Shown here piece by piece: positions 3,692 through 41,606 of a stretch of 64,000 bases of DNA. The notes under the pieces were generated by a model. It was not told the DNA's origin, did not search any database, and was given only the letters and a program-made list of their open reading frames with translations. A program made the position numbers and the translations under genes. The stretch's first letter is position 1. Each line of letters begins with the position of its first letter. The DNA is from a virus: the IMG/VR virus record IMGVR_UViG_3300034198_017033, positions 32,445 to 96,444 of that record, one strand, 5' to 3'.

Positions 3692-4450
3692 TTAAGCCAA
3701 CCTAAGTGGTTTTAAAAACTCTCTCAAGAAAGCGTTTTTAGGACCTCCAATCTTTTCAACCCATTTTTGGTAGTTGGATTCATTTCTTTCTTCCAATTCA
3801 AGTTGAGCTTTTTTGGACGGCTTACGAGTACCATAAGGTAACTTTTCTTCTTGGAACTCTGGGTAAAGTTCTCTATTGAAAACTCTCTCGTCAACCAAGA
3901 ACACAACTGCTGTTAACTGGTCCCCTAAGTCTGGTTCATGGAAAACAGCTGTAGCGACACCATTATCAGTAAGTGTTCTTAAATGTTGGTTAAGACTTCC
4001 TAACTTATCTGGTGTATTGTTAGTAGTACCACCATTAAGGATAATAAAAGTTTTATCTTCTTTGGCCCATTTATTATAAATCTTCTCTAAATTAGATAGA
4101 CCTTTAACTGTTTGACCGTACTCAACCACAGCATGACCAAATTGGATACCTTGTTGAATTGGACTTATATTGTAAGGAACCAGACCATACATTCTGTATT
4201 CCAAATACATTTCAGTTTTTCTTGGCATCGAGTTAGCTTTTACCTTGCATTGTGACAACGCTTCAAGGAATTCACCTTTAGGCATTGTAGGAAACATAAA
4301 ATAATGCATCTCCTTTGAACCGAACCACTCTAGTGGCCATTCGTTTAGGTCTAAGACCCTTATGTTAAGTTCTAAACACCATTGATAAGGTGTTTTAAAT
4401 TCTAATTCTTCCATTAGTGTTCCATTTGTATTAAGTGAGAAATTGTACAT
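3692..4450 (-). CDS. PTH2-like (peptidyl-tRNA hydrolase 2 family) domain protein with an N-terminal extension
   Basis: GIQFGHAVV resembles the PTH2 AAQCSHAAV motif. HEPDLGDQLTAVVF resembles the PTH2 DAGRTQIAPGTVT region. Paralog of 30435-30785. Confidence 0.4.
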   Translation of the reverse strand: MYNFSLNTNGTLMEELEFKTPYQWCLELNIRVLDLNEWPLEWFGSKEMHYFMFPTMPKGEFLEALSQCKVKANSMPRKTEMYLEYRMYGLVPYNISPIQQGIQFGHAVVEYGQTVKGLSNLEKIYNKWAKEDKTFIILNGGTTNNTPDKLGSLNQHLRTLTDNGVATAVFHEPDLGDQLTAVVFLVDERVFNRELYPEFQEEKLPYGTRKPSKKAQLELEERNESNYQKWVEKIGGPKNAFLREFLKPLRLA

Positions 4451-5703
4451 TGTACTGGATTGTAGATAATGAACTCGTCATTTCTAAGGTCAGCACCACC
4501 ATGAGCGTATACGCTATCAAAACCATCCTTTTGGATGTTAGAGTAACTCAAACTATAACATGATGAATCATGTTTGTGAATGTGTTTCTCGTTTCCTAAA
4601 TGTACATCGAACAATGCCAAGAAACCTACTTGAGAGTTACCTCTAGTCCAATGTGAACCTGATAGTGAACTATACCCCAATGATTTTTGACTCTTGTTAG
4701 CGAAATACACACCATCACCGAACATAGAACCAGTGTAAACAGCACCAGAAGGTCTAATCATAAGACCAGTCTGGATAATGTTAAACCAGTTCTCGTTTCG
4801 AGAACCATGCCAGTAAAGTCTTTTCTTTTTAACTTTAGCTGTTTTAAAATGGTTATCAAATTTGGCTTGTGTGGCAATATTAACAACTTTGAAAATCTTT
4901 TTGGCTTTTGACGAATTATCACCCAATAATTTGGTGATAAGGCTAAGTGTTTCGCTATCTTTCTCAACTTCAATCTTAAGACCCATTTGAGTAAGGATGT
5001 CAATATCTGACATTTCTTCACCAGTGGTTTCAATAGTTTGTTTTTGTTGTTTGATAAGTTTAACCTGACCAGCCATGGTATCCAGCGCACTTTGTTCTTC
5101 ACCCAACAATCTTTGAGCTTTTTCCAATTCGTCATCGTTATCAAGACCTTGAACCAAGTGATTTTTAACGTTATCCATTTTTCTAGGAATAACGGTAAAA
5201 AGTCTTAACAATTCGTTGTTCACTTCTTTAAGGTCACCACCAACTTTAAGCATAGCTGTAACTTTAGACAAAACCTCTTGTGCTGCTTCAACTTGTTGTT
5301 CAGAAACAGCGTCTTGAGTAACTTTATAATTCTTTTGAATAGATTTATTTGCGTATGCCATAAGGTCTTGAACTAATTTCTTAACCATAGCATCTTTTAT
5401 CGCTTCAACAGTGTTGTTTTGTGAACCACCGTTTGAATTATCAACTACTGGTTCTGCTAATAACTCTGTTACATCAGTGTAACCTTTACTAGCACCAGTC
5501 TTTTGTTTGTAAACACTACTCCATTTAGAACTATCTTTATACTCAGTAGTGAGACTTTTACCAACTCTACCGTATTCACATTTGATTCTACCGTCAGCAA
5601 GCTCTTCCATTATATAGACTTTGTTGCTATTATCTGTTTTTCCGTTATCAACCGATACGTGAATTAATTTAGCGTATTTTAAGCCGTTTTCTTTAGTTAT
5701 CAT
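4414..5703 (-). CDS. poly(ADP-ribose) polymerase-like protein (WGR domain plus PARP catalytic domain)
   Basis: WGR motif IKCEYGRVGKS. Catalytic signature LYWHGSRNENWFNIIQTGL...GDGVYFA (H-G-S), and NDEFIIYNP supplies the Y and E of the H-Y-E triad. Confidence 0.75.
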   Translation of the reverse strand: MITKENGLKYAKLIHVSVDNGKTDNSNKVYIMEELADGRIKCEYGRVGKSLTTEYKDSSKWSSVYKQKTGASKGYTDVTELLAEPVVDNSNGGSQNNTVEAIKDAMVKKLVQDLMAYANKSIQKNYKVTQDAVSEQQVEAAQEVLSKVTAMLKVGGDLKEVNNELLRLFTVIPRKMDNVKNHLVQGLDNDDELEKAQRLLGEEQSALDTMAGQVKLIKQQKQTIETTGEEMSDIDILTQMGLKIEVEKDSETLSLITKLLGDNSSKAKKIFKVVNIATQAKFDNHFKTAKVKKKRLYWHGSRNENWFNIIQTGLMIRPSGAVYTGSMFGDGVYFANKSQKSLGYSSLSGSHWTRGNSQVGFLALFDVHLGNEKHIHKHDSSCYSLSYSNIQKDGFDSVYAHGGADLRNDEFIIYNPVQCTISHLIQMEH

Positions 5704-7836: not shown

Positions 7837-8889
7837 TTACACCAACTTAAAGAACATATCTCTAACCTTAGAAGAGATGTATTTGTTCACATCTTTTGGT
7901 TCGATTTTGTTATCAGTCATGGTGTCCATTTCCTCTTTGATTACGTCGTTTACAACCCAACGAATTACATCACCCAATTTTTTGTTTTCAATTGGTTCTT
8001 CGTTAGGGAATACATTTTCAAGTGCTTGATTGAAACGACTTTCAGTTACTGCGTATTCAACAAAGCTTTGGATTGATTCCAATTTTTCAGTGTCTACAGC
8101 TGCAAGTGTTTTAACCTTTGAACTAGAGTGGCGTTCGCCCTTCACCTTGAAGCGGTGTACGTTTCCGTTAAGCGTTGTTGACCAAACAATACCTTCACCG
8201 ATTCCAGAGAACCCAAAAGCCTTAGCAACTGGACATTCTTCTTCAACAGCTAGTGTAAGTTCTGACAATTTGTTTTGAACCAATTGTGGCATGTTAAAGT
8301 CAATATCGATTTCCCAAGTTTGGAAATCTTCGATATTGTAAATGTTATCCTCAGGACTTTTCAAAAAGTGTGAAGGAATCCAATAAGCTGGTTTTTGTCT
8401 AGCTTCTTCTTCAGTTTCAGTAATCGGAGTTACTTTAACACCAAAGATAAAGAATGATTTTGGTAGATTTGAAATACCAACACCCTTCTGAATGTTACCA
8501 CCAGCCCATTCACCATAAATCGTAACGATGTTATGACGGACATCAAACATCCCCAACGAATCAATTTGACTAGCAAATTTTTTAAACGCTTCTTTATGTG
8601 ATTCAACAAAGAAAGCAAAACCAGCATTGTCTTTTTCTGGTGTGATAATGTTTTCACGAGATTGTACCCAATACTCACTAGTGTTATCATAACCGTATTT
8701 GAAAGAAACACCAGCATTGGTTCCGTGAAGTTTCACAGTGCCCTTGAAGGTAAGCGTTGGTTTTGGTTTTGTGGTGTCGTAAATCGCATCACCATTCTCA
8801 TCAAGACCAACAAAATTATATTTTCTAAGAACAGTAGCTACAACGCTTCTGAATTGTTCGATAGACGGAAATTTAATCATTTTTTTCAT
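7837..8889 (-). CDS. RNA ligase 2 (T4 Rnl2-like)
   Basis: Motif I VKLHGTN (compare T4 Rnl2 KIHGTN). IYGEWAGGNIQKGV matches Rnl2 FGEFAGPGIQKNV. EGIVW is motif IV. Confidence 0.75.
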   Translation of the reverse strand: MKKMIKFPSIEQFRSVVATVLRKYNFVGLDENGDAIYDTTKPKPTLTFKGTVKLHGTNAGVSFKYGYDNTSEYWVQSRENIITPEKDNAGFAFFVESHKEAFKKFASQIDSLGMFDVRHNIVTIYGEWAGGNIQKGVGISNLPKSFFIFGVKVTPITETEEEARQKPAYWIPSHFLKSPEDNIYNIEDFQTWEIDIDFNMPQLVQNKLSELTLAVEEECPVAKAFGFSGIGEGIVWSTTLNGNVHRFKVKGERHSSSKVKTLAAVDTEKLESIQSFVEYAVTESRFNQALENVFPNEEPIENKKLGDVIRWVVNDVIKEEMDTMTDNKIEPKDVNKYISSKVRDMFFKLV

Positions 8890-13011: not shown

Positions 13012-14136
13012 TTAGAGCATTTTGTATAATAATTTGTCATCGTAGTTTACAATGAAGTCTTCTACGGAACCAACTTTACCATCAACCAATCCGAAATACA
13101 ATCCAGTGAATTGTTTTAAGTCGTGTTTACCACAAACTTCAAATACAGCCGCAGCGTATCTTTTCTTTTCTTCTTTGGTTATGTTTTTTGGTTTACGAGC
13201 ACTTAACTCAACCCAAACATCATTTAACTTGTCAGTTAATTTATCGTAGTTATCTTTAAGTCTAAGCAATTCATCTTTTCTTTCTGGGAAAGTTGAAGCG
13301 AATTCTTCTATCTCGTTAGATTTAACGATAGTTATGATGTTGTGTTCAGCTGTTTTACCTTTCAAGTGGTGAACCGCAACGTAAGCTGGGTTTTTTATCT
13401 TGATACGGTTAAAATTAGCGTCTACAACAACGTAACCTTCTTCTGACCATGGCATACCTTCAAATGTACGTAACAAAGTACCCACATCTTTAGCATTCAA
13501 GTCAAATCTTTTAACCAATGGTACTCTTAACGATTCTGCAATCATAGTTAAGTTTTTCCAAGAAACCTCTTGTAATGTAACACGGTTTCTAACAGTCAAC
13601 AAAGTTGCTGATGATTCTCCGTGTGGTTTTACAACAATATTATATGGAGTTGTTAACTCAAACACATATACATGGTTTTTGTCGAACATACATGTATTCA
13701 ACGCATATTGTTTTGTTACAGTGTCCCAAAACAATGAGTTAAAAGTAGTTCCCATTTTGTTGTTAACTTCACCCTCACCCTCAGCTGTACCAGTAGTACC
13801 AGCATACCATTCTTCGTTTACCCAGTCCCAATACACTTGTATAAGAGTACCGTCAAGTTTCTCTAAAACGTGAGCTGTGTTCCAATCTATTTTAGCAGCG
13901 TTTCCTTCTTCAGCATTGAAGAATTTTGTGAAAGCCAACGACATAACATCCCATGTACCTTTTTCAAGGATAAGACCTCTACATTCTTGAACTTCTATGT
14001 TCGACATAATAGTTGGTGACACTAATTGGTCATATTTCAATAACACTTTGTGTTCGTATTCACGAGTTTTTAATTGAAACTCTTTAACAGCTTTTTCAAA
14101 ACCGTTTTCTTTTATAAATTTTTGTATTTTTAACAT
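13012..14136 (-). CDS. RNA ligase 1 (T4 RnlA-like)
   Basis: ECRGLILE matches T4 Rnl1 ECRGIMFE. Nucleotidyl-transferase motif I is EKLDGTLIQVY. EGYVVVDANFNRIKIK matches Rnl1 EGYVAVMKDGSHFKIK. Confidence 0.75.
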   Translation of the reverse strand: MLKIQKFIKENGFEKAVKEFQLKTREYEHKVLLKYDQLVSPTIMSNIEVQECRGLILEKGTWDVMSLAFTKFFNAEEGNAAKIDWNTAHVLEKLDGTLIQVYWDWVNEEWYAGTTGTAEGEGEVNNKMGTTFNSLFWDTVTKQYALNTCMFDKNHVYVFELTTPYNIVVKPHGESSATLLTVRNRVTLQEVSWKNLTMIAESLRVPLVKRFDLNAKDVGTLLRTFEGMPWSEEGYVVVDANFNRIKIKNPAYVAVHHLKGKTAEHNIITIVKSNEIEEFASTFPERKDELLRLKDNYDKLTDKLNDVWVELSARKPKNITKEEKKRYAAAVFEVCGKHDLKQFTGLYFGLVDGKVGSVEDFIVNYDDKLLYKML

Positions 14137-15312: not shown

Positions 15313-15337
15313 AAAAAGGGTCTTTACGACCCTTTCT
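15313..15337 (-). terminator. hairpin terminator (gggtc tttac gaccc) overlapping the stop of 15324-16262
   Basis: Stem-loop flanked by A and T runs. Confidence 0.45.
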
Positions 15338-16262
15338 TAATTTCAGTAACTCTACCCTTAATGGCAAAGTTCTTTATTTTTTGCCATTTGGTGATATCAT
15401 TCGACATCACTGGTTTTCCACCATCTGGGTTTATCGCAATTGTTATATGTGGAATCGCATTGGTTGATGGATAACCTTCAACCCTAACAGCCATAGCCAT
15501 ATCGCTAATCCCTATAGCTTCAACATACAAAGTAACTTCTTTACCTAAATCTTCTTGGTTTGGTACTGGTTTACCAAACACTATAGTCATGTGGTGCGCA
15601 ATTACTTTCCAACCATCAGGTATCATACCCTCAATTCTTGACAACAAAGCTGCTCTAGACCCACCATCCAATACAACAGCAGAATACAAAATGTTTGATT
15701 CTTTGTACATGTCTTTCGATTCTAAAACGCTTTTAAGCGTTAATGGACCTTGACCCTTGTGTGATTCAATCATTGATTGTATTTTTTCAAGCGGTACACC
15801 ATGAGTGTTTCTTTCAGCTAATTGCTCAGCTGTAAGACCAGCTGTACCTATATCCACAAACTTTATGTTGTTGTCAGCCAACCCCATTTCCAAAGCAGCC
15901 TTAATAGCGGCCTTTGATTCGTTTTGTTTGATGTTTGTGTTATCTAGGATAACTGGTGAAACACCTTCTTTTAACGAACCAACAACGTTTTTTAAATTGG
16001 TAGAGTGAGCTCTTGACAATGGTGTAAAGTCTTTAGATTCAAACATTAATTGAAAGAATTTGTTGTAATCACCTTGTGACTCTATAACAGCATCAGTTGA
16101 ATGGATTACTCCTTCACCTACTAGTTCTTTGGCTTTTGTTGATTTACCCGAGCCTGGTATACCACGCATCACGATAAGCACTTGGTCTGGTCTTGAAACC
16201 GCAACCCCTAATGAATTCTTTAACATACCTTCTCTTAATATTGTTCTTATTTCTTTTTTCAT
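15324..16262 (-). CDS. polynucleotide 5'-kinase fused to a 2H (LigT/CPDase-like) phosphoesterase domain
   Basis: P-loop VMRGIPGSGKST as in the T4 Pnk kinase domain. The C-terminal half carries two H-x-T-x motifs (HMTIVF and HITIAI) typical of the 2H superfamily. N-terminal motif MKKEIRTILREG. Confidence 0.7.
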   Translation of the reverse strand: MKKEIRTILREGMLKNSLGVAVSRPDQVLIVMRGIPGSGKSTKAKELVGEGVIHSTDAVIESQGDYNKFFQLMFESKDFTPLSRAHSTNLKNVVGSLKEGVSPVILDNTNIKQNESKAAIKAALEMGLADNNIKFVDIGTAGLTAEQLAERNTHGVPLEKIQSMIESHKGQGPLTLKSVLESKDMYKESNILYSAVVLDGGSRAALLSRIEGMIPDGWKVIAHHMTIVFGKPVPNQEDLGKEVTLYVEAIGISDMAMAVRVEGYPSTNAIPHITIAINPDGGKPVMSNDITKWQKIKNFAIKGRVTEIKKGS

Positions 16263-17819: not shown

Positions 17820-17906
17820 TGGTGGAGAGTATGGGATTCGAACCCATGGGCCGAACTAACGACCACGGATTAGCAATCCGCTCCATTACCACTCTGGCAA
17901 CTCTCC
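17820..17906 (-). tRNA. tRNA-Ser (anticodon GCT), class II, CCA encoded
   Basis: Acceptor GGAGAGT/ACTCTCC. Anticodon loop TTGCTAA. T-arm GGTTCGAATCC. Long variable arm. Confidence 0.8.
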
Positions 17907-18383: not shown

Positions 18384-18650
18384 ATTTGTGAATGTGGTAG
18401 GGTATTCTCCTACAATTGTGGTGGTTAACTAGTCCCATGCTCCACGCCAGTTTTTCGTCTGGTGCTGTTGTAGTTTATCAGCATTAACACATTCTTATTT
18501 TTTTGTTCTTTTCAATTTGTGCTTTGATTCTAGCAATCTTTTCTGGACTTGGATTTCGGTCTACCGTATAAGATACACCCATTTTATCCAAGTAATCATA
18601 AAGACGCTGCATATCAGCTTCACTTGTCTTTTCCATCTTCTTTTATTTTG

Positions 18651-18724
18651 CGGGGCCGATGGGATTCGAACCCATGTAAAAGGATTAACAGTCCTCCGTA
18701 TTAGACCGCTGCTACGACAGCCCC
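18651..18724 (-). tRNA. tRNA-Asn (anticodon GTT)
   Basis: Acceptor GGGGCTG/CGGCCCC. Discriminator G. Anticodon stem-loop GAGGA-CTGTTAA-TCCTT. Confidence 0.75.
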
Positions 18725-19266
18725 TTGTTATTTCTTTCTTCTTCGTGTACTTCTCTGTGACAATTAGCACAAACTAAAATACATTTATCTAATTCTTTTT
18801 TTATTTTTTCCCAAGATGTACAATGACCTTTTCTGCTTATTAAAAAATCTTTTTCATTTGGGTCCATATGGTGAAACTCTAAAGCACCTATGTATTTATT
18901 ATAACCACATCTCTGACATGAACCGCCTTTGTATTCAACTGCCATCTCTTTGACTTTTTGTCTTCTTTTTACAACGGCTTTAACAGCTTTTTCTTTCCTC
19001 TCTTCTTCGCTTAAATAGACTCTTTTATTTTCAGTATATTTAGTTACAGTTGAAGCTCCAATCCCGAAATGTTTAGCTGTTTCAGCTTTACTATGAGTTA
19101 AATAATACTCATTAATTTTAGAAATTAAACTGTCAGTTATAACCTTACCACCTAAACCATTATTGTTAATGTGATATGATACGGTGCTTTTAGCACAACC
19201 CAATTCTTTAACAATTTCATCAATTTTTAAACCTTTTTTTCTTAATTCTAATATTTTTTCTTTCAT
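18712..19266 (-). CDS. HNH endonuclease with an N-terminal HTH (homing-endonuclease-like), inserted in the tRNA array
   Basis: HNH motif CQRCGY...EFHHMDP...LVCANCHREVH. N-terminal HTH IDEIVKELGCAKSTVSYHI. Confidence 0.6.
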   Translation of the reverse strand: MKEKILELRKKGLKIDEIVKELGCAKSTVSYHINNNGLGGKVITDSLISKINEYYLTHSKAETAKHFGIGASTVTKYTENKRVYLSEEERKEKAVKAVVKRRQKVKEMAVEYKGGSCQRCGYNKYIGALEFHHMDPNEKDFLISRKGHCTSWEKIKKELDKCILVCANCHREVHEEERNNKGLS

Positions 19267-19333
19267 AATTTGTTTTTATTATAAATATAATAAATTCGAA
19301 CAAAAAGTCAATAGATTAACAAAAAAATTTTCG

Positions 19334-19419
19334 CTCTGGCTGTAGGATTCGAACCTACGTTGAGGGTGTACCCTAGCAGATTAACAGTCTGCTGCCATCG
19401 TCCACTCGGCCAAACCAGA
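19334..19419 (-). tRNA. class-II-like tRNA (long variable arm), anticodon GTT, discriminator G
   Basis: Acceptor TCTGGTT/AGCCAGA. D-arm GCC-GAGTGGACGAT-GGC. Anticodon arm GCAGA-CTGTTAA-TCTGC is one base from the E. coli tRNA-Tyr arm GCAGACTGTAAATCTGC. Variable hairpin GGGTACACCC. T-arm GTAGG-TTCGAAT-CCTAC. Confidence 0.5.
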
Positions 19420-19525
19420 ATTTTATATTTTTATCAATACACCGAGTACCACAATTACGGTGCGCCTCTGGTCCATTCGCCAGCGTTGCTGTTTTTACCC
19501 GTGGTTACACCATTTGATAGGGTGT

Positions 19526-19598
19526 GGTCCCCTCGGGACTCGAACCCGAAACCGTCGCGTTATGAGCGCGCTGCGCTAACCAATTGCGCCAGAGGACC
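19526..19598 (-). tRNA. tRNA-Met/Ile2 (anticodon CAT)
   Basis: Acceptor GGTCCTC/GGGGACC. D-arm GCGC-AATTGGTTA-GCGC. Anticodon loop CTCATAA. T-arm TCGGG-TTCGAGT-CCCGA. Confidence 0.7.
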
Positions 19599-19832
19599 TT
19601 ATTTACGTTTTTCAACAATATACTTGATGTAATCTTCGTATCCATCATCATCGTCTTCATCTTCATTTTCTTCTGGTTCAAAGTCTTCATCTAACATTTC
19701 GTCCAGAATTTTAAAAGCAATTTTCATTATTTCTTGTTCTTTACCCTTCAATTGTGGGTTAGGAAGCAAAATGAACAATCCAACTATGGCTTCTACCAAT
19801 CCTTTTTCATTTTCACTATATTGTCTTTTCAT
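19599..19832 (-). CDS. small protein with an acidic C-terminal tail
   Basis: Start MKRQYSENEKG (ATG at 19832), wedged between two tRNAs. The tail is EENEDEDDDDGYEDY. Confidence 0.4.
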   Translation of the reverse strand: MKRQYSENEKGLVEAIVGLFILLPNPQLKGKEQEIMKIAFKILDEMLDEDFEPEENEDEDDDDGYEDYIKYIVEKRK

Positions 19833-19834
19833 AG

Positions 19835-19918
19835 TTGTGACGGTGGGACTCGAACCCACATTGTGTTATAAACACCCAGCGTATCAGGCTGGTGACTAAA
19901 CCATTCATCCACATCACA
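19835..19918 (-). tRNA. class-II-like tRNA-like gene, anticodon GAT; the D-arm is poorly formed
   Basis: Acceptor TGTGATG/CGTCACA. Anticodon arm CCAGC-CTGATAC-GCTGG. Extra hairpin GTGTT-TAT-AACAC. T-arm GTGGG-TTCGAGT-CCCAC. Confidence 0.4.
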
Positions 19919-19924
19919 GTTTGT

Positions 19925-19995
19925 AGGCATGTCGAGACTCGAACTCGAAATACAAAAGTATCAGTCTTGCGTGATAACCAATTTCACCACACGCC
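19925..19995 (-). tRNA. tRNA-Ile (anticodon GAT)
   Basis: Acceptor GGCGTGT/ACATGCC. D-arm GTGA-AATTGGTTA-TCAC. Anticodon stem-loop CAAGA-CTGATAC-TTTTG. T-arm TCGAG-TTCGAGT-CTCGA. Confidence 0.7.
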
Positions 19996-20005
19996 TATGT
20001 TTTAG

Positions 20006-20210: not shown

Positions 20211-20645
20211 TTATTTTTGCGGTGAATATTTTTCAATGTAATTTATTAAATTTTTTAGGTAATTAACATCTTCTTTTACGTTACCCAATAATTTATTACA
20301 TTTATCACATAAAATATCTCTAACAACACCAGTCAAATGACAATGGTCTACGTGTGTTTTTTTATCATTTTTTAAAACATCACTACAGATAGAACATTTA
20401 TGTTCTTGTTTATCTAATTTTAATAAATATTCTTCTTTAGTAAGACCATAATTTCTTAAAATTGAATTATACTTTATTTTTTCTTTTTGAATAGGGTCTT
20501 GATATCTAACCTTATTCCTATTATTTTCACATTCTTTACAATAATGATTTAAACCATCTTTATTATAATTTTTTACACCAAATAAATCAATACTTTTTTC
20601 TTCTTGACATTTGGAACACCTTTTAACGTTTATATTTATTTCCAT
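20211..20645 (-). CDS. endonuclease VII-like (T4 gp49 family) HNH/zinc-finger nuclease
   Basis: HVDHCHLTGVVRDILCDKCNKLLGN resembles the T4 endo VII core HLDHDHELNG...RGLLCNLCN. An N-terminal Cys pair is also present. Confidence 0.6.
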   Translation of the reverse strand: MEININVKRCSKCQEEKSIDLFGVKNYNKDGLNHYCKECENNRNKVRYQDPIQKEKIKYNSILRNYGLTKEEYLLKLDKQEHKCSICSDVLKNDKKTHVDHCHLTGVVRDILCDKCNKLLGNVKEDVNYLKNLINYIEKYSPQK

Positions 20646-20715: not shown

Positions 20716-20803
20716 CGGAGGAGACAGGACTCGAACCTGCAACCCACTTTCGCGAGACTAGTTTTCAAGACTAGAGCGGTCAACCATTACGCTTTACTCC
20801 TCC
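20716..20803 (-). tRNA. tRNA-Ser (anticodon TGA), class II
   Basis: Acceptor GGAGGAG/CTCCTCC. Anticodon stem-loop CTAGT-CTTGAAA-ACTAG. Long variable arm. T-arm CAGG-TTCGAGT-CCTG. Confidence 0.8.
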
Positions 20804-25176: not shown

Positions 25177-26349
25177 TTATTTTAATAATTTTTCAAAGTT
25201 AGCTGTTTCCATTTTTTGGATGGCTTTTCCCAACTCAGGACTTGGTTTCAAATCAAATTTTTCCATAGCCTCTGGTCCGCTAACGCTAAGTCTATATTGT
25301 TCAAAAGCGTTTAACAATTTTTCTGGTATGTTTTCTTTCTCACCAAATTCTCTAATTTGTTTATCAGAAACACCAGCAGTTTGTTGCATTTTTTTCAACA
25401 AGTATGCGGTATCAACACTCAATTTTAAGAATGAAATTAAAAACACAATCGCTTTTATTTCGTCTGCTGAGTATTTCAATTCATTTAATTTTCTTCTTAA
25501 CAAATCAATTTCGTTATCTTTTAATAAACTAGCCAATTCAACAATGTAATTGTCAACTTTACCAGAGTTTCTCATGTATGATTTTTTATTCAATAACATG
25601 TTAGGTAACACCCATTTGAATAAGTCATATTTATCTAACATTTCCATGTATTTTTTAAATGACTTAGCTGAGATTAATCCTTTGATAAACTCATCTCTAA
25701 TACGCTCACCAGAAATACCTTCAAGACTTGCATCTTTTTGTAATGCCATATCTGTTGCTGGGTCTAAATCAGAACCAAATCTACCAGCAAATCTAATCGC
25801 TCTTAGAATTCTAAGCCTATCTTCACCAAATCTATCTTCTGGGGCACCAACAGTTCTCACAACACCGTTTTTAAGGTCGTCTACACCACCTACAAGGTCA
25901 ACTATTTCTTTTGTGTCTATATCATAGAACAAAGCGTTGATTGTAAGGTCACGTCTTTTTACATCACCATCTATATTTGTAAATTCAACACTGTCTGGTC
26001 TTCTACCAGAACCAATATCATTTCGAAACGTAGCTACTTCATATTCTCCTTGGTCAGTGAATACGTTGATAACACCAAAAGCTTTACCAGTTGGTAGGGT
26101 TCTGAACCCAGCATCTTGCATCATTTCTTCTACTTTGTCAGGAACAGCATCTGTAGCTAAATCAAAATCCTTAGGTGTTTTTCCTAATAGGGCATCGCGC
26201 ACAGCTCCACCAACCACATATAATTTATATCCGTTTTTGGTGAACACCTTTTGGATTTCAATTATATCTGATGGTATTTGGAAGTCAAATTTAATTCTTT
26301 CTTCCATTGTAAGTCCTTCTCTAAGTATTTGTTTTATCTGTGTTTTCAT
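25177..26349 (-). CDS. CCA-adding tRNA nucleotidyltransferase (class II)
   Basis: Head-domain motifs GGAVRDALLGKTPKDFDLAT and RRDLTINA. Start MKTQIKQILREGL carries the shared N-terminal motif. The -7 box abuts the ATG. Confidence 0.75.
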   Translation of the reverse strand: MKTQIKQILREGLTMEERIKFDFQIPSDIIEIQKVFTKNGYKLYVVGGAVRDALLGKTPKDFDLATDAVPDKVEEMMQDAGFRTLPTGKAFGVINVFTDQGEYEVATFRNDIGSGRRPDSVEFTNIDGDVKRRDLTINALFYDIDTKEIVDLVGGVDDLKNGVVRTVGAPEDRFGEDRLRILRAIRFAGRFGSDLDPATDMALQKDASLEGISGERIRDEFIKGLISAKSFKKYMEMLDKYDLFKWVLPNMLLNKKSYMRNSGKVDNYIVELASLLKDNEIDLLRRKLNELKYSADEIKAIVFLISFLKLSVDTAYLLKKMQQTAGVSDKQIREFGEKENIPEKLLNAFEQYRLSVSGPEAMEKFDLKPSPELGKAIQKMETANFEKLLK

Positions 26350-26350
26350 T

Positions 26351-26363
26351 TTGCAAAGATACA
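26351..26363 (-). promoter_or_regulatory. -7 promoter element (ttgcaaagataca) only 4 nt from the ATG
   Basis: Consensus motif immediately adjacent to the start codon at 26349. Confidence 0.45.
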
Positions 26364-26386
26364 ATTTTATTTTTAAAAAACAAAAA

Positions 26387-30845: not shown

Positions 30846-30918
30846 TAGTTCTAATCGGACTCGAACCGATATTTCTCCGTTTTAGAGGCGGGCGTATTCA
30901 CGTTAATACTATAGAACC
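30846..30918 (-). tRNA. suppressor-type tRNA with anticodon CTA (reads UAG), 73 nt with standard numbering, discriminator A
   Basis: Acceptor GGTTCTA/TAGAACT. D-arm GTAT-TAACGTGA-ATAC. Anticodon loop positions 32-38 are CTCTAAA (U33, A37). The anticodon stem is weak (3 GC pairs flanked by C-A pairs). T-arm ATCGG-TTCGAGT-CCGAT. Confidence 0.55.
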
Positions 30919-33496: not shown

Positions 33497-33552
33497 ACAG
33501 AATAGTCTTTTTTGTATCCTAAACATTAAATTGCTGAATCTATTCTTCTAGT

Positions 33553-33638
33553 TGCGGAAGTAGGATTCGAACCTACAACACAGTGTTACTGCTCCTCTAG
33601 GTTATGAGCCTAGCATGTTACCATTTCCACCATTCCGC
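33553..33638 (-). tRNA. class-II-like tRNA-like gene, anticodon CAT; D-arm and acceptor are imperfect
   Basis: Anticodon arm CTAGG-CTCATAA-CCTAG. Extra hairpin CAGT-AAC-ACTG. T-arm GTAGG-TTCGAAT-CCTAC. The acceptor has about 6 bp. Confidence 0.4.
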
Positions 33639-33646
33639 GATGTATT

Positions 33647-34306
33647 TTATTTTCTACCCTTAACCCAACCTTCGTTCAGATAAGTTTCAAGGTTTTCTTT
33701 TTTTATCTTTTTGTTAGCACCGTCTCTGGTTATCCAACACGTACCGTATTGACTATTTGTTTCACCAATACCAGTACCTTTTCTTTTTTCAGAGATTAAA
33801 CGTTTAGATTCTTCAGCATGATTTTTACCAGTCCAATCTAGATTTTTTAATTTATTCTGTCTGTATTCTTCATTTTCCCAAGCTATTTTATTAACATGAG
33901 AATTGAATCTACTTAACCAGTTTTCATCACCACCGAACTTTTCTTTTAAAACTTCGTCAGTTTTTTTTCTACCAGCTTTAACACATTTAAACATATGTTC
34001 TTCATTGATAAAACCACCACCTTCACCACCAAGAGCCAAATTCATACATTTGGAATCTGAAATTAATTCTTTATTAACAATTTCTTTTTCTCTTTTAGCT
34101 AATTCTTCTCTATTTTCTAAAAATTCTAGAATCTCTTTTGTGTGATTTTCTTTACCGTATTTTCTAATAGAACGTCTTAATGTTTTACCACTACCTATAT
34201 AACCATCTTCTAAGTTATACGTGCTATGCATTCCGATGTACCATCGTCCTGTTATATTACACGTTGTTTTATAAATGTAGTGTATGTTTTTTTCTTTTCT
34301 TGCCAT
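33647..34306 (-). CDS. GIY-YIG homing endonuclease
   Basis: IHYIYKTTCNITGRWYIGMHST...GYIGSG is a GIY-YIG core. The C-terminus carries NUMOD3-like repeats (GKNHAEESKRLISEKRKG). Confidence 0.7.
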   Translation of the reverse strand: MARKEKNIHYIYKTTCNITGRWYIGMHSTYNLEDGYIGSGKTLRRSIRKYGKENHTKEILEFLENREELAKREKEIVNKELISDSKCMNLALGGEGGGFINEEHMFKCVKAGRKKTDEVLKEKFGGDENWLSRFNSHVNKIAWENEEYRQNKLKNLDWTGKNHAEESKRLISEKRKGTGIGETNSQYGTCWITRDGANKKIKKENLETYLNEGWVKGRK

Positions 34307-34365
34307 TTCAATTTCTTTAATAATAAATATCTCAGAAAACTGAAAAGTACAAAAAAGTCTCCAGT

Positions 34366-34436
34366 AGCGGGGGCCCGACTCGAACGGACGACCTCAAGGT
34401 TATGAGCCTTGCGAGCTACCTACTGCTCTACCCCGC
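34366..34436 (-). tRNA. tRNA-Met/Ile2 (anticodon CAT)
   Basis: Acceptor GCGGGG/CCCCGC. D-arm GAGC-AGTAGGTA-GCTC. Anticodon stem-loop CAAGG-CTCATAA-CCTTG. T-arm GTCCG-TTCGAGT-CGGGC. Confidence 0.65.
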
Positions 34437-34856
34437 AATGTTAGTGCGGTAGGCTGGCTATGAACCAGCTATCCTAGAAAATGCTTTTTAAGGCAATCTT
34501 TCAGATAAAGACTTAACTTCTACCACTTTTGGTCAGAATCTCTTTTTTTCTGTGTTTTTTATCAAATTAAAAATAGAGTTTTAGTTTGCTGAAAAGATTC
34601 TTTAACCATATAAGTTATCTCAAGATGATAGTTCGCTTTGTTTTACGTGACTAACGTGCTCACGGTAGTAGATTTAAAGTGTCCTCACAACACTCCCAGT
34701 TTTTTTCACTTTCGTGTGACAATAGCGACTCATGGTATTTCAATGTTGTCAGTAATGTCCGATGGAGACTAGTTACTCCTTCTCATAGTTGTAGATATCT
34801 GTTTGCAGAAATCATCTTTTTAGATATGTTGTTTAAGAACGTATTGTAATAAATAT

Positions 34857-40151: not shown

Positions 40152-41606
40152 TTAAACAGTTACGCTAGCGTAACGCTCTGAGCCGATAACTGACATCATC
40201 ATTGCTAATGGTGTCATTTCTTTACCAGCCAACAAGTTGGTAAGTAAAGCTGGACTGAACCCAGATACAAGCGCAGTTCCATTTTTATCAAAGTGAACTG
40301 GTTTGTTGTTATCACCTCTTGATTGAATGTTCCAGAAAACGATTTTTGGCACTTCGTACCCAGCATCGTTATACATTTTTTCAATCATTTGTTGAGCAGT
40401 TGGGTTCCAAGAACCTTGACCACCCCAACGACTACCTACAGCAGAGTCAAACTCCATATCTGATAGGATTAACATCATTGTTGGCATTTCCTCAGGTGCA
40501 ACATTAGAAGCAACAGCTTTATTTAAAATCAACTTGAAAGCTGCTTCTAAATTAGTACTACCACCCCATTTTGAACGTGCCATTTGACGGTATCTTTCTG
40601 ACAAACTACCTTTCACTATTTCTAATGATGGTGATTCGTGGAAAGTAATAAACGCGTCTTTGAATGGACCAACGTTTCTTTCTGAAATGTATAACCCCAA
40701 TGAGATTGATACATCCATACAAGTAACATTAGCGTTACTACCCGCTGGTGTTTCCATAGAACCAGATACGTCAACCAATGGCAACACTCTTTCGTTGTTG
40801 TTTTCCATGTAGTTTGGTAACGCGTTCCATTGAACATCAGCACCTTTGGTATTACCTTGTTTAAGGTTTTTGATGATGTCGTATGGGTATACGGCACCAG
40901 CATTGATTTTGGTTTCACCTTTTTCAACACTTGTTAAGTATTCTTGAAAACGAGCTAAGTCGTTTTTAGAGAACGCTTTCATGTAATCACTCATAGCTTT
41001 TGAAGGCAATTTAGAGTAATCAATTAAAGAGAATTCTCTAGAACACATTAATTGCTCAACTGTGTTAGAATTTTCAACTAACATTTTACGGTAGTCTTTT
41101 GGTGACATACCCATATATTTTCTTAAAGTGGTTGCCCATCTTTTTTTCTCACGATTACCAACATTTGGACGTGGAGCCCATTTTGCAGCTAAACCATTTT
41201 TACTAGTCAAACCTTCAGCATATAAACCTAACGCTTGTGTTTCTAAAGGTGTTCCAATCATCATAAATAAATCATCCCAACGACCAAACTCACTAATCAA
41301 ATGTAAGTTCTTAGCAAGAACCTCTGTACGGTTTTTACCTAAATATTCAATTATGTCTCTGAAAATTTGTCTCTCACCAGCACCACCACGAACATCACGA
41401 GCCCAAAAAAGCAAACGCATAGCGTTTAACGGGTTCTCACCAAAAGCTTTGGTAAACACATTGATAAGTCTAGTTTTATCTTGACCTCTCATTGCACCAA
41501 TTTGAAAAAATAAATCAACACATAAATTCAAAGAACTTGAATTTGTAGTCATTCCGTTTTCAGTTAAAGAATTGTTAGTTTGCATAGCTTTTAATAAAGT
41601 GCTCAT
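40152..41606 (-). CDS. vWA-domain protein (DUF2828-like phage protein; possible distant Ro60/TROVE-like architecture)
   Basis: MIDAS-like PLVDVSGSME. Large alpha-helical N-terminal region. Confidence 0.45.
   Translation of the reverse strand: MSTLLKAMQTNNSLTENGMTTNSSSLNLCVDLFFQIGAMRGQDKTRLINVFTKAFGENPLNAMRLLFWARDVRGGAGERQIFRDIIEYLGKNRTEVLAKNLHLISEFGRWDDLFMMIGTPLETQALGLYAEGLTSKNGLAAKWAPRPNVGNREKKRWATTLRKYMGMSPKDYRKMLVENSNTVEQLMCSREFSLIDYSKLPSKAMSDYMKAFSKNDLARFQEYLTSVEKGETKINAGAVYPYDIIKNLKQGNTKGADVQWNALPNYMENNNERVLPLVDVSGSMETPAGSNANVTCMDVSISLGLYISERNVGPFKDAFITFHESPSLEIVKGSLSERYRQMARSKWGGSTNLEAAFKLILNKAVASNVAPEEMPTMMLILSDMEFDSAVGSRWGGQGSWNPTAQQMIEKMYNDAGYEVPKIVFWNIQSRGDNNKPVHFDKNGTALVSGFSPALLTNLLAGKEMTPLAMMMSVIGSERYASVTV

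Follow-up and report, generated by a model that had tools for sequence, protein, structure and literature searches.

The rule that only serine, leucine and selenocysteine tRNAs and, in bacteria, tyrosine tRNAs bear a long variable (V) arm underlies tRNA identity models and annotation, and a 64,000-nucleotide stretch of phage DNA (positions 32,445 to 96,444 of IMG/VR record IMGVR_UViG_3300034198_017033; hereafter, the window) raises the question of whether phages respect it. Two tRNA genes of the window, with the anticodons GUU and GAU of asparagine and isoleucine, carry an additional hairpin in the variable region; each is ~12 nucleotides (nt) longer than a normal tRNA and lies close to a normal-length (short-arm) gene with the same anticodon. 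The original prediction for this locus had taken these long-arm genes for structurally divergent duplicates of canonical neighbours and had suggested that they might be nuclease-resistant replacements, decoys or mis-sense tRNAs. Are they real tRNAs, which amino acid would they carry, and what might the extra arm do?

Using ARAGORN, 15 tRNA genes were called in the window, all on the minus strand, including the long-arm GUU gene (19334..19419; called as 19333-19419) and the long-arm GAU gene (19835..19918; called as 19834-19918). With the Rfam tRNA covariance model these two scored 55.6 bits (E = 8e-10) and 52.5 bits (E = 5.6e-09), above the gathering score of 29 bits and in the range of the other window tRNAs (49-61 bits); both alignments ran over the full length of the model (positions 1-71), and the extra bases of the GUU gene were placed as an insertion in the variable region. 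Folding by minimum free energy (MFE) alone gave a five-arm cloverleaf for both, and both have the ordinary 7/5 branch (7-bp acceptor stem, 5-bp T stem). The GUU gene (UCUGGUU-UG-GCCG-AGUGGACGA-UGGC-A-GCAGA-CUGUUAA-UCUGC-U-AGGG-UACA-CCCU-CAAC-GUAGG-UUCGAAU-CCUAC-AGCCAGA-G) is 86 nt long, with U1:A72, C2:G71, U3:A70, discriminator G73, no encoded CCA, a D arm GCCG-AGTGGACGA-TGGC and a 17-nt variable region (U-AGGG-UACA-CCCU-CAAC) made of a 4-bp stem and four unpaired 3' bases. The GAU gene has 84 nt, U1:A72, G2:C71, A73, a 3-bp D stem and again no encoded CCA, and its variable region (GUGUU-UAU-AACAC-AAU) consists of a 5-bp stem with three unpaired 3' bases. The set of features used in translation is complete, from U33 and the purine at position 37 to the cognate discriminator and acceptor stem, the GUUCGAAUC T loop and the GG of the D loop. 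Consistently with the original prediction, the class II architecture of the GUU gene and the GTGTT-TAT-AACAC hairpin and GAT anticodon of the GAU gene were recovered by detector, covariance model and folding, and the two outcomes that it had named as fatal, namely a class I fold with a differently placed anticodon or a pseudogene-like score, did not occur. The canonical duplicates are also there: a short-arm tRNA-Asn(GUU) with G1:C72 and G73 (18651..18724, minus strand; ARAGORN 18650-18724) and a short-arm tRNA-Ile(GAU) directly upstream of its long-arm copy (19924..19996, minus strand; ARAGORN 19923-19996), both also matching the Rfam tRNA model.

Compensatory changes in the V stems indicate that the extra hairpin is under selection. 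In eight Ile(GAU) orthologues, the V helix was 100% paired, with three of four pairs changed on both sides: a 4-5-bp stem (GUGUU/AACAC, GUGCU/AGCAC, GUUC/GAAC, GUAC/GUAC, GUGA/UCAC or GCUC/GAGC) directly follows the anticodon stem, and three unpaired bases follow it. In 13 GUU homologues, including those of phiKZ and 4MG (covariation was measured on a trimmed alignment of these 13 sequences), the V helix was 92.9% paired and all four pairs had changed on both sides. For the whole structure, 99% and 97.7% of the cells of the two homologue alignments were paired, and none of 500 column shuffles reached the observed values. Because the V-loop sequences vary (UAU, UUCG, GCAA, GAAA), shape rather than sequence seems to be the conserved property of the arm. 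Since two independent detectors agree, the covariance scores are normal and the MFE folds are five-armed, the GUU and GAU genes are almost certainly real tRNAs with a selected extra arm.

The window holds a third gene of this kind, an initiator-like tRNA with anticodon CAU (33552..33639, minus strand), called by ARAGORN, scoring 57.3 bits with the Rfam model and again folding into five arms by MFE. It has a C1xA72 mismatch, A73, a 20-nt variable region and two G:C pairs adjoining the anticodon loop, and its ordinary partner is a short-arm initiator-like tRNA(CAU) with a U1xU72 mismatch (34365..34437, minus strand; ARAGORN and Rfam tRNA model). Thus, three isoacceptor functions (GUU, GAU and initiator-like CAU) are each present in this phage as a short-arm and a long-arm version. 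The crAss001 tRNA t23 has almost the same V arm as the long-arm CAU gene (GCAGUAACACUGU in the latter), whose closest cultured relatives are in Bacteroides crAss-like phages; an identical copy of the gene occurs in locus L022, where the best profile match is the initiator type. The long-arm Ile and CAU genes of the window have identical or near-identical copies in IMG/VR contigs, one of 362 kb. The long-arm Ile(GAU) family was found in IMG/VR contigs only, with no BLAST match among phage records; there, the adjacent short-arm and long-arm Ile genes, 6-15 nt apart, are kept as a pair in at least six contigs, recurring in L018, L020, L021, L094 and L107, with the order reversed in L021. Related contigs of 270-370 kb have in common the array order His-Trp-Ile-Ile(long)-Met-Asn...-Arg-Arg-Ser, in which the long-arm Ile gene is constant and the long-arm Asn slot variable.

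Long-arm tRNAs of this class are widespread in phages, and the one pattern on which the comparison with cells rests, that for GUU, is almost absent from cellular genomes. This pattern (the anticodon arm of the GUU gene and the T loop, with more sequence between them than a short-arm tRNA can hold) matched 14 IMG/VR contigs and only one of 185,579 bacterial and archaeal genomes (one per species), while the Ile pattern matched 6 viral contigs and the CAU pattern at least 118. The single cellular match is a chromosomal gene with anticodon GTT, G1:C72 and A73 (L015 5291-5376) in a Chromatiales metagenome-assembled genome (MAG; JBQTIC010000110.1), followed by Gly(tcc) and Thr(ggt), an order that we take to match tyrU-glyT-thrT of E. 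coli; we read it as a probable chromosomal tRNA-Tyr orthologue with GTT, outside the phage family. Its tRNA-Tyr body with anticodon GTT points either to an error (assembly or polymorphism) or to a tRNA that naturally brings Tyr to Asn codons.

Among 1326 tRNAs called by ARAGORN in 139 sources (long being defined as a variable region of at least 9 nt outside Ser, Leu and Tyr; some calls are mis-registered by one base), ~190 distinct long-arm tRNAs with non-Ser/Leu/Tyr anticodons were found in 136 phage loci. As the loci were retrieved by three sequence patterns, the following long-arm fractions hold for phages that have at least one such tRNA: Asn 37/106, Met(CAU) 121/200 (enriched by the scan's own pattern), Cys 10/48, His 9/38, Ile(GAU) 10/53, Ile(UAU) 7/21, Thr(UGU) 8/43, Gln 5/42, Lys(UUU) 4/47, Trp 4/42, Asp 3/58, Gly 0/86, Arg 1/69 and Ala 1/35. 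Cultured phages carry such genes annotated as plain tRNAs, all scoring 51-54 bits, above the Rfam tRNA threshold: the tRNA-Asn of phiKZ (AF399011 269557-269645; annotated span 89 nt, U1:A72, G73, CCA encoded), the tRNA-Asn of Escherichia phage 4MG (KF550303 61200-61285; 86 nt, G1:C72, G73), found also in GAP31, VIK251 and EC152, and the 'tRNA-Met' t23 of crAss001 (MH675552 5721-5807; 87 nt, C1xA72, A73). They belong to the same families as the GUU and CAU genes of the window and likewise have a Tyr/Ser-like core and a short extra arm. In phiKZ (one match in the record and in an annotated 3-kb stretch) and 4MG (5-kb tRNA array examined), the long-arm gene is the only tRNA-Asn seen, whereas the window also keeps a short-arm copy. 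Searches of full-text literature, in which most subscription journals are missing, turned up no paper on such tRNAs in phages, although an earlier mention may exist elsewhere; the genes have been in GenBank as plain tRNA-Asn or tRNA-Met, in records silent on the arm.

The synthetase-facing features were shown to match those expected for the cognate amino acid, not for Ser, Leu or Tyr. The class spans Asn, Ile, initiator Met, His, Cys, Thr, Lys, Trp, Asp and others, and in acceptor stem, discriminator and anticodon its members appear to keep to their own amino acid. Across families the discriminator of the long-arm copies is that of the short-arm copies with the same anticodon: G in 27/37 long-arm Asn tRNAs (65/69 for short-arm GUU, so that the G of the GUU gene is Asn-like, as had been predicted), U in 9/10 Cys, C in 8/9 His, A in 17/17 Ile, U in 8/8 Thr, A in 4/4 Lys, G in 3/4 Trp and A, together with C1:G72, in 2/2 Pro. 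The initiator 1:72 mismatch was present in 72/121 long-arm CAU tRNAs, and both this mismatch and the C73 of His are foreign to Ser, Leu or Tyr identity. In E. coli, tRNA-Asn is identified by the anticodon bases G34, U35 and U36 and by G73; the window gene has GUU and G73, with a 17-nt variable region in place of the short (4-5 nt) variable loop. The GAU gene has the features of tRNA-Ile (G34, A35, U36, A37 and A73), and both genes combine the paired variable-region hairpin of class II tRNAs with anticodons other than those of Ser, Leu or Tyr. Acceptor stems are in line: the first three pairs of the window GUU gene resemble those of many short-arm Asn tRNAs, and long-arm Ile tRNAs begin with U or A and mostly carry G2:C71 (8/9), as does short-arm Ile (32/40). 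In P. aeruginosa, which has no AsnRS, Asn-tRNA is formed by a non-discriminating AspRS together with GatCAB, and GatCAB reads U1:A72; the U1:A72 of the phiKZ tRNA-Asn is consistent with cognate use, although it is not a test of it.

Taken together, these features make it probable that the GUU and GAU genes are charged with the amino acid of their own anticodon, Asn and Ile. AsnRS and IleRS would charge the long-arm tRNAs, which would then serve the abundant Asn (AAY) and Ile (AUY/AUA) codons, 71 and 75 per 1000, respectively, in the long open reading frames (ORFs) of the window; no other tRNA-Asn than the long-arm one was observed in phiKZ and 4MG, which fits a decoding role. As for the arm, it may alter the shape of the tRNA body so that the second isoacceptor copy escapes host factors that read the body, such as defence nucleases and other tRNA toxins, acting together with the tRNA ligases, kinase and CCA-adding enzyme of the phage. 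This last step is the weakest, and we regard it as a tentative suggestion, in which the coexistence of short and long arms, the uneven isotype distribution and the published effect of V-loop shape for tRNA-Tyr lend it some backing. In a similarly speculative form, large phages may keep a 'private' second set of isoacceptors, with a Tyr-type arm serving as a steric shield or self-mark while charging and decoding stay normal; such tRNAs might, with no better odds, have ceased to be substrates for body-recognising host effectors or for a host-tRNA nuclease made by the phage. As a whole, the reading that we favour, if by a little, is that these tRNAs do work as carriers of Asn and Ile, with a class-II-like scaffold and an arm that possibly serves to evade defences; this preference weighs the realness and charging of the tRNAs.

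Phage tRNAs with known anti-defence roles offer a partial parallel: the tRNA-Tyr of SP15 and T5 act against Retron-Eco7 PtuAB, that of T6 against Septu, the tRNA-Lys of T5 against PARIS, and anticodon-loop variants are known from mycobacteriophages. Like the window genes, these are phage copies of isoacceptors that the host also holds, in arrays interleaved with homing endonucleases. For SP15 tRNA-Tyr, the longer V loop was needed to neutralise Retron-Eco7 PtuAB (PMC12673091, PMC13096335). In contrast to the window genes, which have a whole extra arm and unchanged anticodon loops, the known cases belong to the normal class for their amino acid and differ in loop sequence, loop length or dosage.

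Several observations weigh against the favoured reading. On the side of defence evasion, each long-arm gene has the same anticodon loop as its short-arm copy (CUGUUAA in Asn and CUGAUAC in Ile, the latter with C38 in both copies as against A38 in E. coli), so nucleases that read the loop alone would not be evaded, and the link to colicin E5-type anticodon nucleases drawn in the original prediction lost its footing, while its wider idea of nuclease-resistant replacements may still apply. Moreover, we know of no nuclease to which a class I tRNA becomes resistant through the gain of an arm and, to our knowledge, no defence system is evaded by a whole added arm. On the side of charging, class II synthetases such as AsnRS approach the tRNA from the variable-loop side, where an extra arm could hinder them. 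When isotype profiles were scored on sequences stripped of the V region and with masked anticodons (hold-out accuracy 73%), the window GUU gene ranked as Ser (36.7 bits) before Tyr (32.9) and Asn (27.0), and hence has a class-II-like core, while the window Ile gene was best as Ile by only ~1 bit; the G73 of the GUU gene is, in addition, also the Ser discriminator. Seven distinct long-arm GUU genes have U73 (L005 7852-7938, L016 734-821, L017 2755-2842, L030 10395-10482, L055 2931-3019, L107 1634-1723 and L121 9966-10053), found in 1/69 short-arm Asn tRNAs, together with a Ser-like acceptor stem (G1:C72 in 5/7, G2:C71 in 6/7). This subgroup may supply the best candidates for Ser-charged mis-sense tRNAs, and the cognate rule may thus not be universal. 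Finally, the retrieval of loci by three patterns biases the isotype frequencies. As a separate observation, in L016 and L017 the U73-type gene holds an array place similar to that of the G73 type in the window, between long-arm Ile and Arg genes.

Of the rival explanations, the one that survives best, although we consider it unlikely, is that the arm is a functionless leftover: a Tyr- or Ser-type gene would have been remoulded to Asn, its hairpin being kept since the class-II core misfolds without it, and the products would be ordinary cognate isoacceptors. The GUU core does stand closer to tRNA-Tyr/Ser than to short-arm Asn. Its 5' half has 89% identity to the tRNA-Tyr of phage phiWec188 by BLAST and, without the acceptor stem, the gene is 0.64-0.77 identical to four tRNA-Tyr-type genes (the tRNA-Tyr of phiWec188 and 4MG, the MAG gene and, at 0.72, an E. 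coli tyrT sequence) as against 0.57-0.58 to short-arm tRNA-Asn; a BLAST search of the gene against E. coli genomes gave no match at E<=1, as so short a query is lost in a 28-Gb database. The GUU family has in common with bacterial tRNA-Tyr the anticodon arm (GCAGACUGUNAAUCUGC), a near-identical T arm, and a short V stem with ~3 unpaired 3' bases, but has GUU instead of GUA, G73 instead of A73, and a replaced G2:C71; consistently, the anticodon arm had been predicted to lie one substitution from tRNA-Tyr. The GUU gene thus looks like a chimera of a class-II Tyr/Ser-like core with an Asn-type acceptor stem, discriminator and anticodon. Scaffolds are, moreover, common to long-arm tRNAs of different anticodons, the nearest long-arm relatives of the window Asn and Ile genes being the Thr gene of L014 and the Cys gene of L055 (0.84 each, at a nearest-neighbour similarity too saturated for clean assignment of parents). 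Class-II-type D arms occur in all three long-arm genes of the window, covariation would also arise from purifying selection on a structural hairpin, and phage tRNAs are plastic in other ways, as an armless tRNA-Leu and a D-loop hairpin in the tRNA-Lys of 4MG illustrate. Against a mere leftover, however, the arm occurs in at least ten isoacceptor families, and in some of them the body is best matched by its own short-arm isotype (52/78 long-arm CAU tRNAs as initiator, 6/8 His and 3/3 Asp), which suggests repeated gain of the arm, by short-arm tRNAs as well. Adjacent short-arm and long-arm pairs are stably kept across related phages, and the isotype distribution is uneven, from none in Gly and one in Arg to ~20% in Cys, His and Thr.

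A second rival, which we hold to be rather improbable, is that these are mis-sense tRNAs: the arm would recruit SerRS to the GUU tRNA (G73) or LeuRS or TyrRS to the GAU tRNA (A73), so that AAY codons would partly be read as Ser and AUY codons partly as Leu. A long arm with G73 is a Ser combination, the body of the window GUU gene profiles best as Ser/Tyr, the U73 subgroup has its Ser-like acceptor stem, and SerRS and LeuRS ignore the anticodon (PMC9976931, PMC5389517). There is also a precedent in the nematode nev-tRNAs, which are likewise class-II-shaped with a 7/5 cloverleaf and the anticodons of short-arm amino acids (Gly CCC, Ile UAU); derived from a class II parent, they keep Leu identity, Leu being the sole amino acid with which nev-tRNA-Ile and nev-tRNA-Gly are charged (PMC3333845). 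Unlike these eukaryotic nuclear genes, however, the phage genes have a cognate acceptor stem and discriminator and are without the Leu D-loop element. A further precedent is given by the allo-tRNAs and (8/4) tRNA-Ser/His, which have a long arm, many non-Ser anticodons and G73 or U73, lie in some cases in phage clusters, and have an 8/4 or 9/3 acceptor/T branch, a tRNA-Sec-like D arm and predicted or shown Ser identity (Mukai et al. 2017, PMC5389517), whereas the window genes have a 7/5 branch, non-Ser acceptor stems and a Tyr-type arm.

The features of the two genes bear on mis-sense charging most directly. In phage tRNA-Ser, G2:C71 (51/54) and A3:U70 (42/54) prevail and neither U1:A72 nor C2:G71 was seen (0/54 each), in contrast to the U1:A72, C2:G71 and U3:A70 of the GUU gene; G2:C71 occurs in only 3/22 G73-type long-arm GUU genes. 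The arm differs as well, since Ser arms are mostly of 4-7 bp with a mode of one and never more than two unpaired bases 3' of the stem, compared with four bp and four unpaired bases in the GUU gene. In this measure Leu has a mode of two and Tyr of three, and the long-arm class has a mode of three, then four, so that its arm can be classed, by its form, as tRNA-Tyr-type (3-5-bp stem, usually a tetraloop, 3-4 unpaired 3' bases). As a SerRS substrate, then, the GUU gene does not fit despite its G73. It does not fit as a TyrRS substrate either, for although core and arm are Tyr-like, it has G73 and GUU where A73 (24/25 phage tRNA-Tyr) and GUA would be expected. For the GAU gene as a LeuRS substrate, the essentials in E. 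coli are A15:U48, G18G19 and A20a, the long arm itself being dispensable (PMC9976931). The gene has A73 and G18G19, and its U48 could pair with A15, but this base is not conserved, the last V-region base of the orthologues being U, C or G. A20a is missing: after G18G19 the D loop reads UU (GGUU), as in short-arm Ile, and the second of these positions is U in 10/10 long-arm Ile(GAU) and A in 85/100 phage Leu tRNAs. The arm has three rather than two unpaired bases, and the Ile-type acceptor stem is unlike that of phage tRNA-Leu (G1 in 66/79, C2:G71 in 57/79). Finally, the discriminator follows the anticodon across families, down to the C73 of His, and phiKZ and 4MG would mistranslate every Asn codon read by their only observed tRNA-Asn. 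The identity switch raised by the original prediction is thus disfavoured for both window genes, and we judge mis-sense charging, like a decoy role, less likely than cognate charging.

A third rival, with only a small chance of being right, would place these tRNA-shaped RNAs outside translation, as decoys or sponges that occupy host tRNA nucleases or defence proteins, for example of the PtuAB type. It draws on the Tyr-like core and arm of the GUU gene, given that PtuAB and Septu act on the tRNA-Tyr variable loop, on the duplication of a canonical neighbour, and on the investment of the window in tRNA repair. It sits poorly with the conserved full set of translation features, with the CCA encoded in the long-arm genes of phiKZ, 4MG, L001 and L009, with the long-arm gene being the sole tRNA-Asn seen in phiKZ and 4MG, which also told against the pure decoy role envisaged at the outset, and with a published retron case, in which rescue by phage tRNA needed the decoding function (PMC11555353). 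That the genes are degenerate pseudogenes or artefacts, short-arm tRNAs with a misplaced anticodon, is a possibility close to nil, as only their length is unusual, whereas they match at full length with scores in the range of their neighbours, both tools agree on the anticodon, and all helices covary.

In phages, the long-arm rule has a recurrent exception, kept by selection and extending to ten or more other specificities, the initiator among them. If cognate charging is true, a dozen synthetases, the formylase, EF-Tu and the ribosome would tolerate an added arm, which would be useful for the engineering of tagged or orthogonal tRNAs. Should the arm shield these tRNAs from tRNA-directed immunity, it would represent a new counter-defence principle, a structure-based layer of the phage-host conflict over tRNAs. 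If some members are mischarged, phages would deliberately recode sense codons, with the U73 subgroup as the best candidate. The members found in phiKZ, E. coli phage 4MG and crAss001 make all three possibilities directly testable.

The genes around the tRNA array agree with the heavy investment in tRNA repair that the original prediction had seen there. All on the minus strand, the window encodes an Rnl2-family RNA ligase (7837-8889), a T4 Rnl1-family RNA ligase (13012-14136), a kinase (AAA_33) with a tRNA-ligase phosphodiesterase-like domain (15324-16262) and a CCA-adding enzyme (25177..26364; Pfam PolyA_pol head domain at 2.3e-37, and an RNA-binding domain). By their predicted functions, the two ligases, the kinase/phosphodiesterase-like protein and the CCA-adding enzyme make up a full tRNA repair kit and, because neither the GUU nor the GAU long-arm gene encodes CCA, the last of these could supply their 3' CCA. 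Homing-type endonucleases lie among the tRNA genes on the same strand (18712-19266, with HNH and HTH domains; 20211-20645, endonuclease VII; 33647-34306, a PHROG homing endonuclease) and recall SegB of the T4/T6 tRNA region; one of them separates the long-arm and short-arm Asn genes and another the long-arm and short-arm CAU genes. The large ORFs between the tRNA clusters had no Pfam or PHROGs match, and no candidate phage synthetase or arm-binding protein emerged among them. A small ORF (19599-19859, minus strand; probable start ATG near 19832) is squeezed in between the long-arm Ile gene and the tRNA that follows; it encodes a protein whose C-terminal part is very acidic (DEDFEPEENEDEDDDDGYEDY) and for which PHROGs gave no match. 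Further window genes encode a protein with a PARP catalytic domain (4414-5703, minus strand; 2.7e-25), a DUF2828/DUF7788 protein (40152-41606, minus strand), a DNA ligase, a DnaJ and a sigma factor. The window has a G+C content of 31%; its tRNA region had no close match among 50,697 phage records by megablast, and at the protein level the window resembles huge uncultured phages only distantly.

Three other tRNA genes of the window, likewise on the minus strand, are unusual too. A tRNA with the amber-suppressor anticodon CUA (30846-30918) was labelled 'Pyl' by ARAGORN. Recoding of TAG within the window is nevertheless unsupported, as the standard genetic code gives 87% ORF coverage and the stops of 50 long ORFs are TAA in 44 and TAG in 4; recoding, if any, would have to act elsewhere in the genome. 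The tRNA(UGA) (20717-20803), Ser by its anticodon, has the selenocysteine tRNA model as its best Rfam match (43.8 bits, with a cut-off of 47); ARAGORN draws three bases between its acceptor and D stems, and it could be kin to the irregular Ser tRNAs reported in phages. The tRNA-Ser(GCU) (17820-17906) has A instead of the usual G as discriminator and encodes its CCA, unlike the other window tRNAs whose 3' ends were examined. In other phages, the tRNA-Lys(UUU) of 4MG (L140 2239-2322; 84 nt) has an extra hairpin, GAC-GUAU-GUC, in the D loop, and was missed by ARAGORN while scoring 50.5 bits with Rfam. Some phage tRNA-Leu have a short, class-I-like variable loop (UAA 4/35, UAG 7/35; for instance L140 415-489 and 3277-3350), so that phage tRNAs, judged by their genes, can lose the arm as well as gain it.

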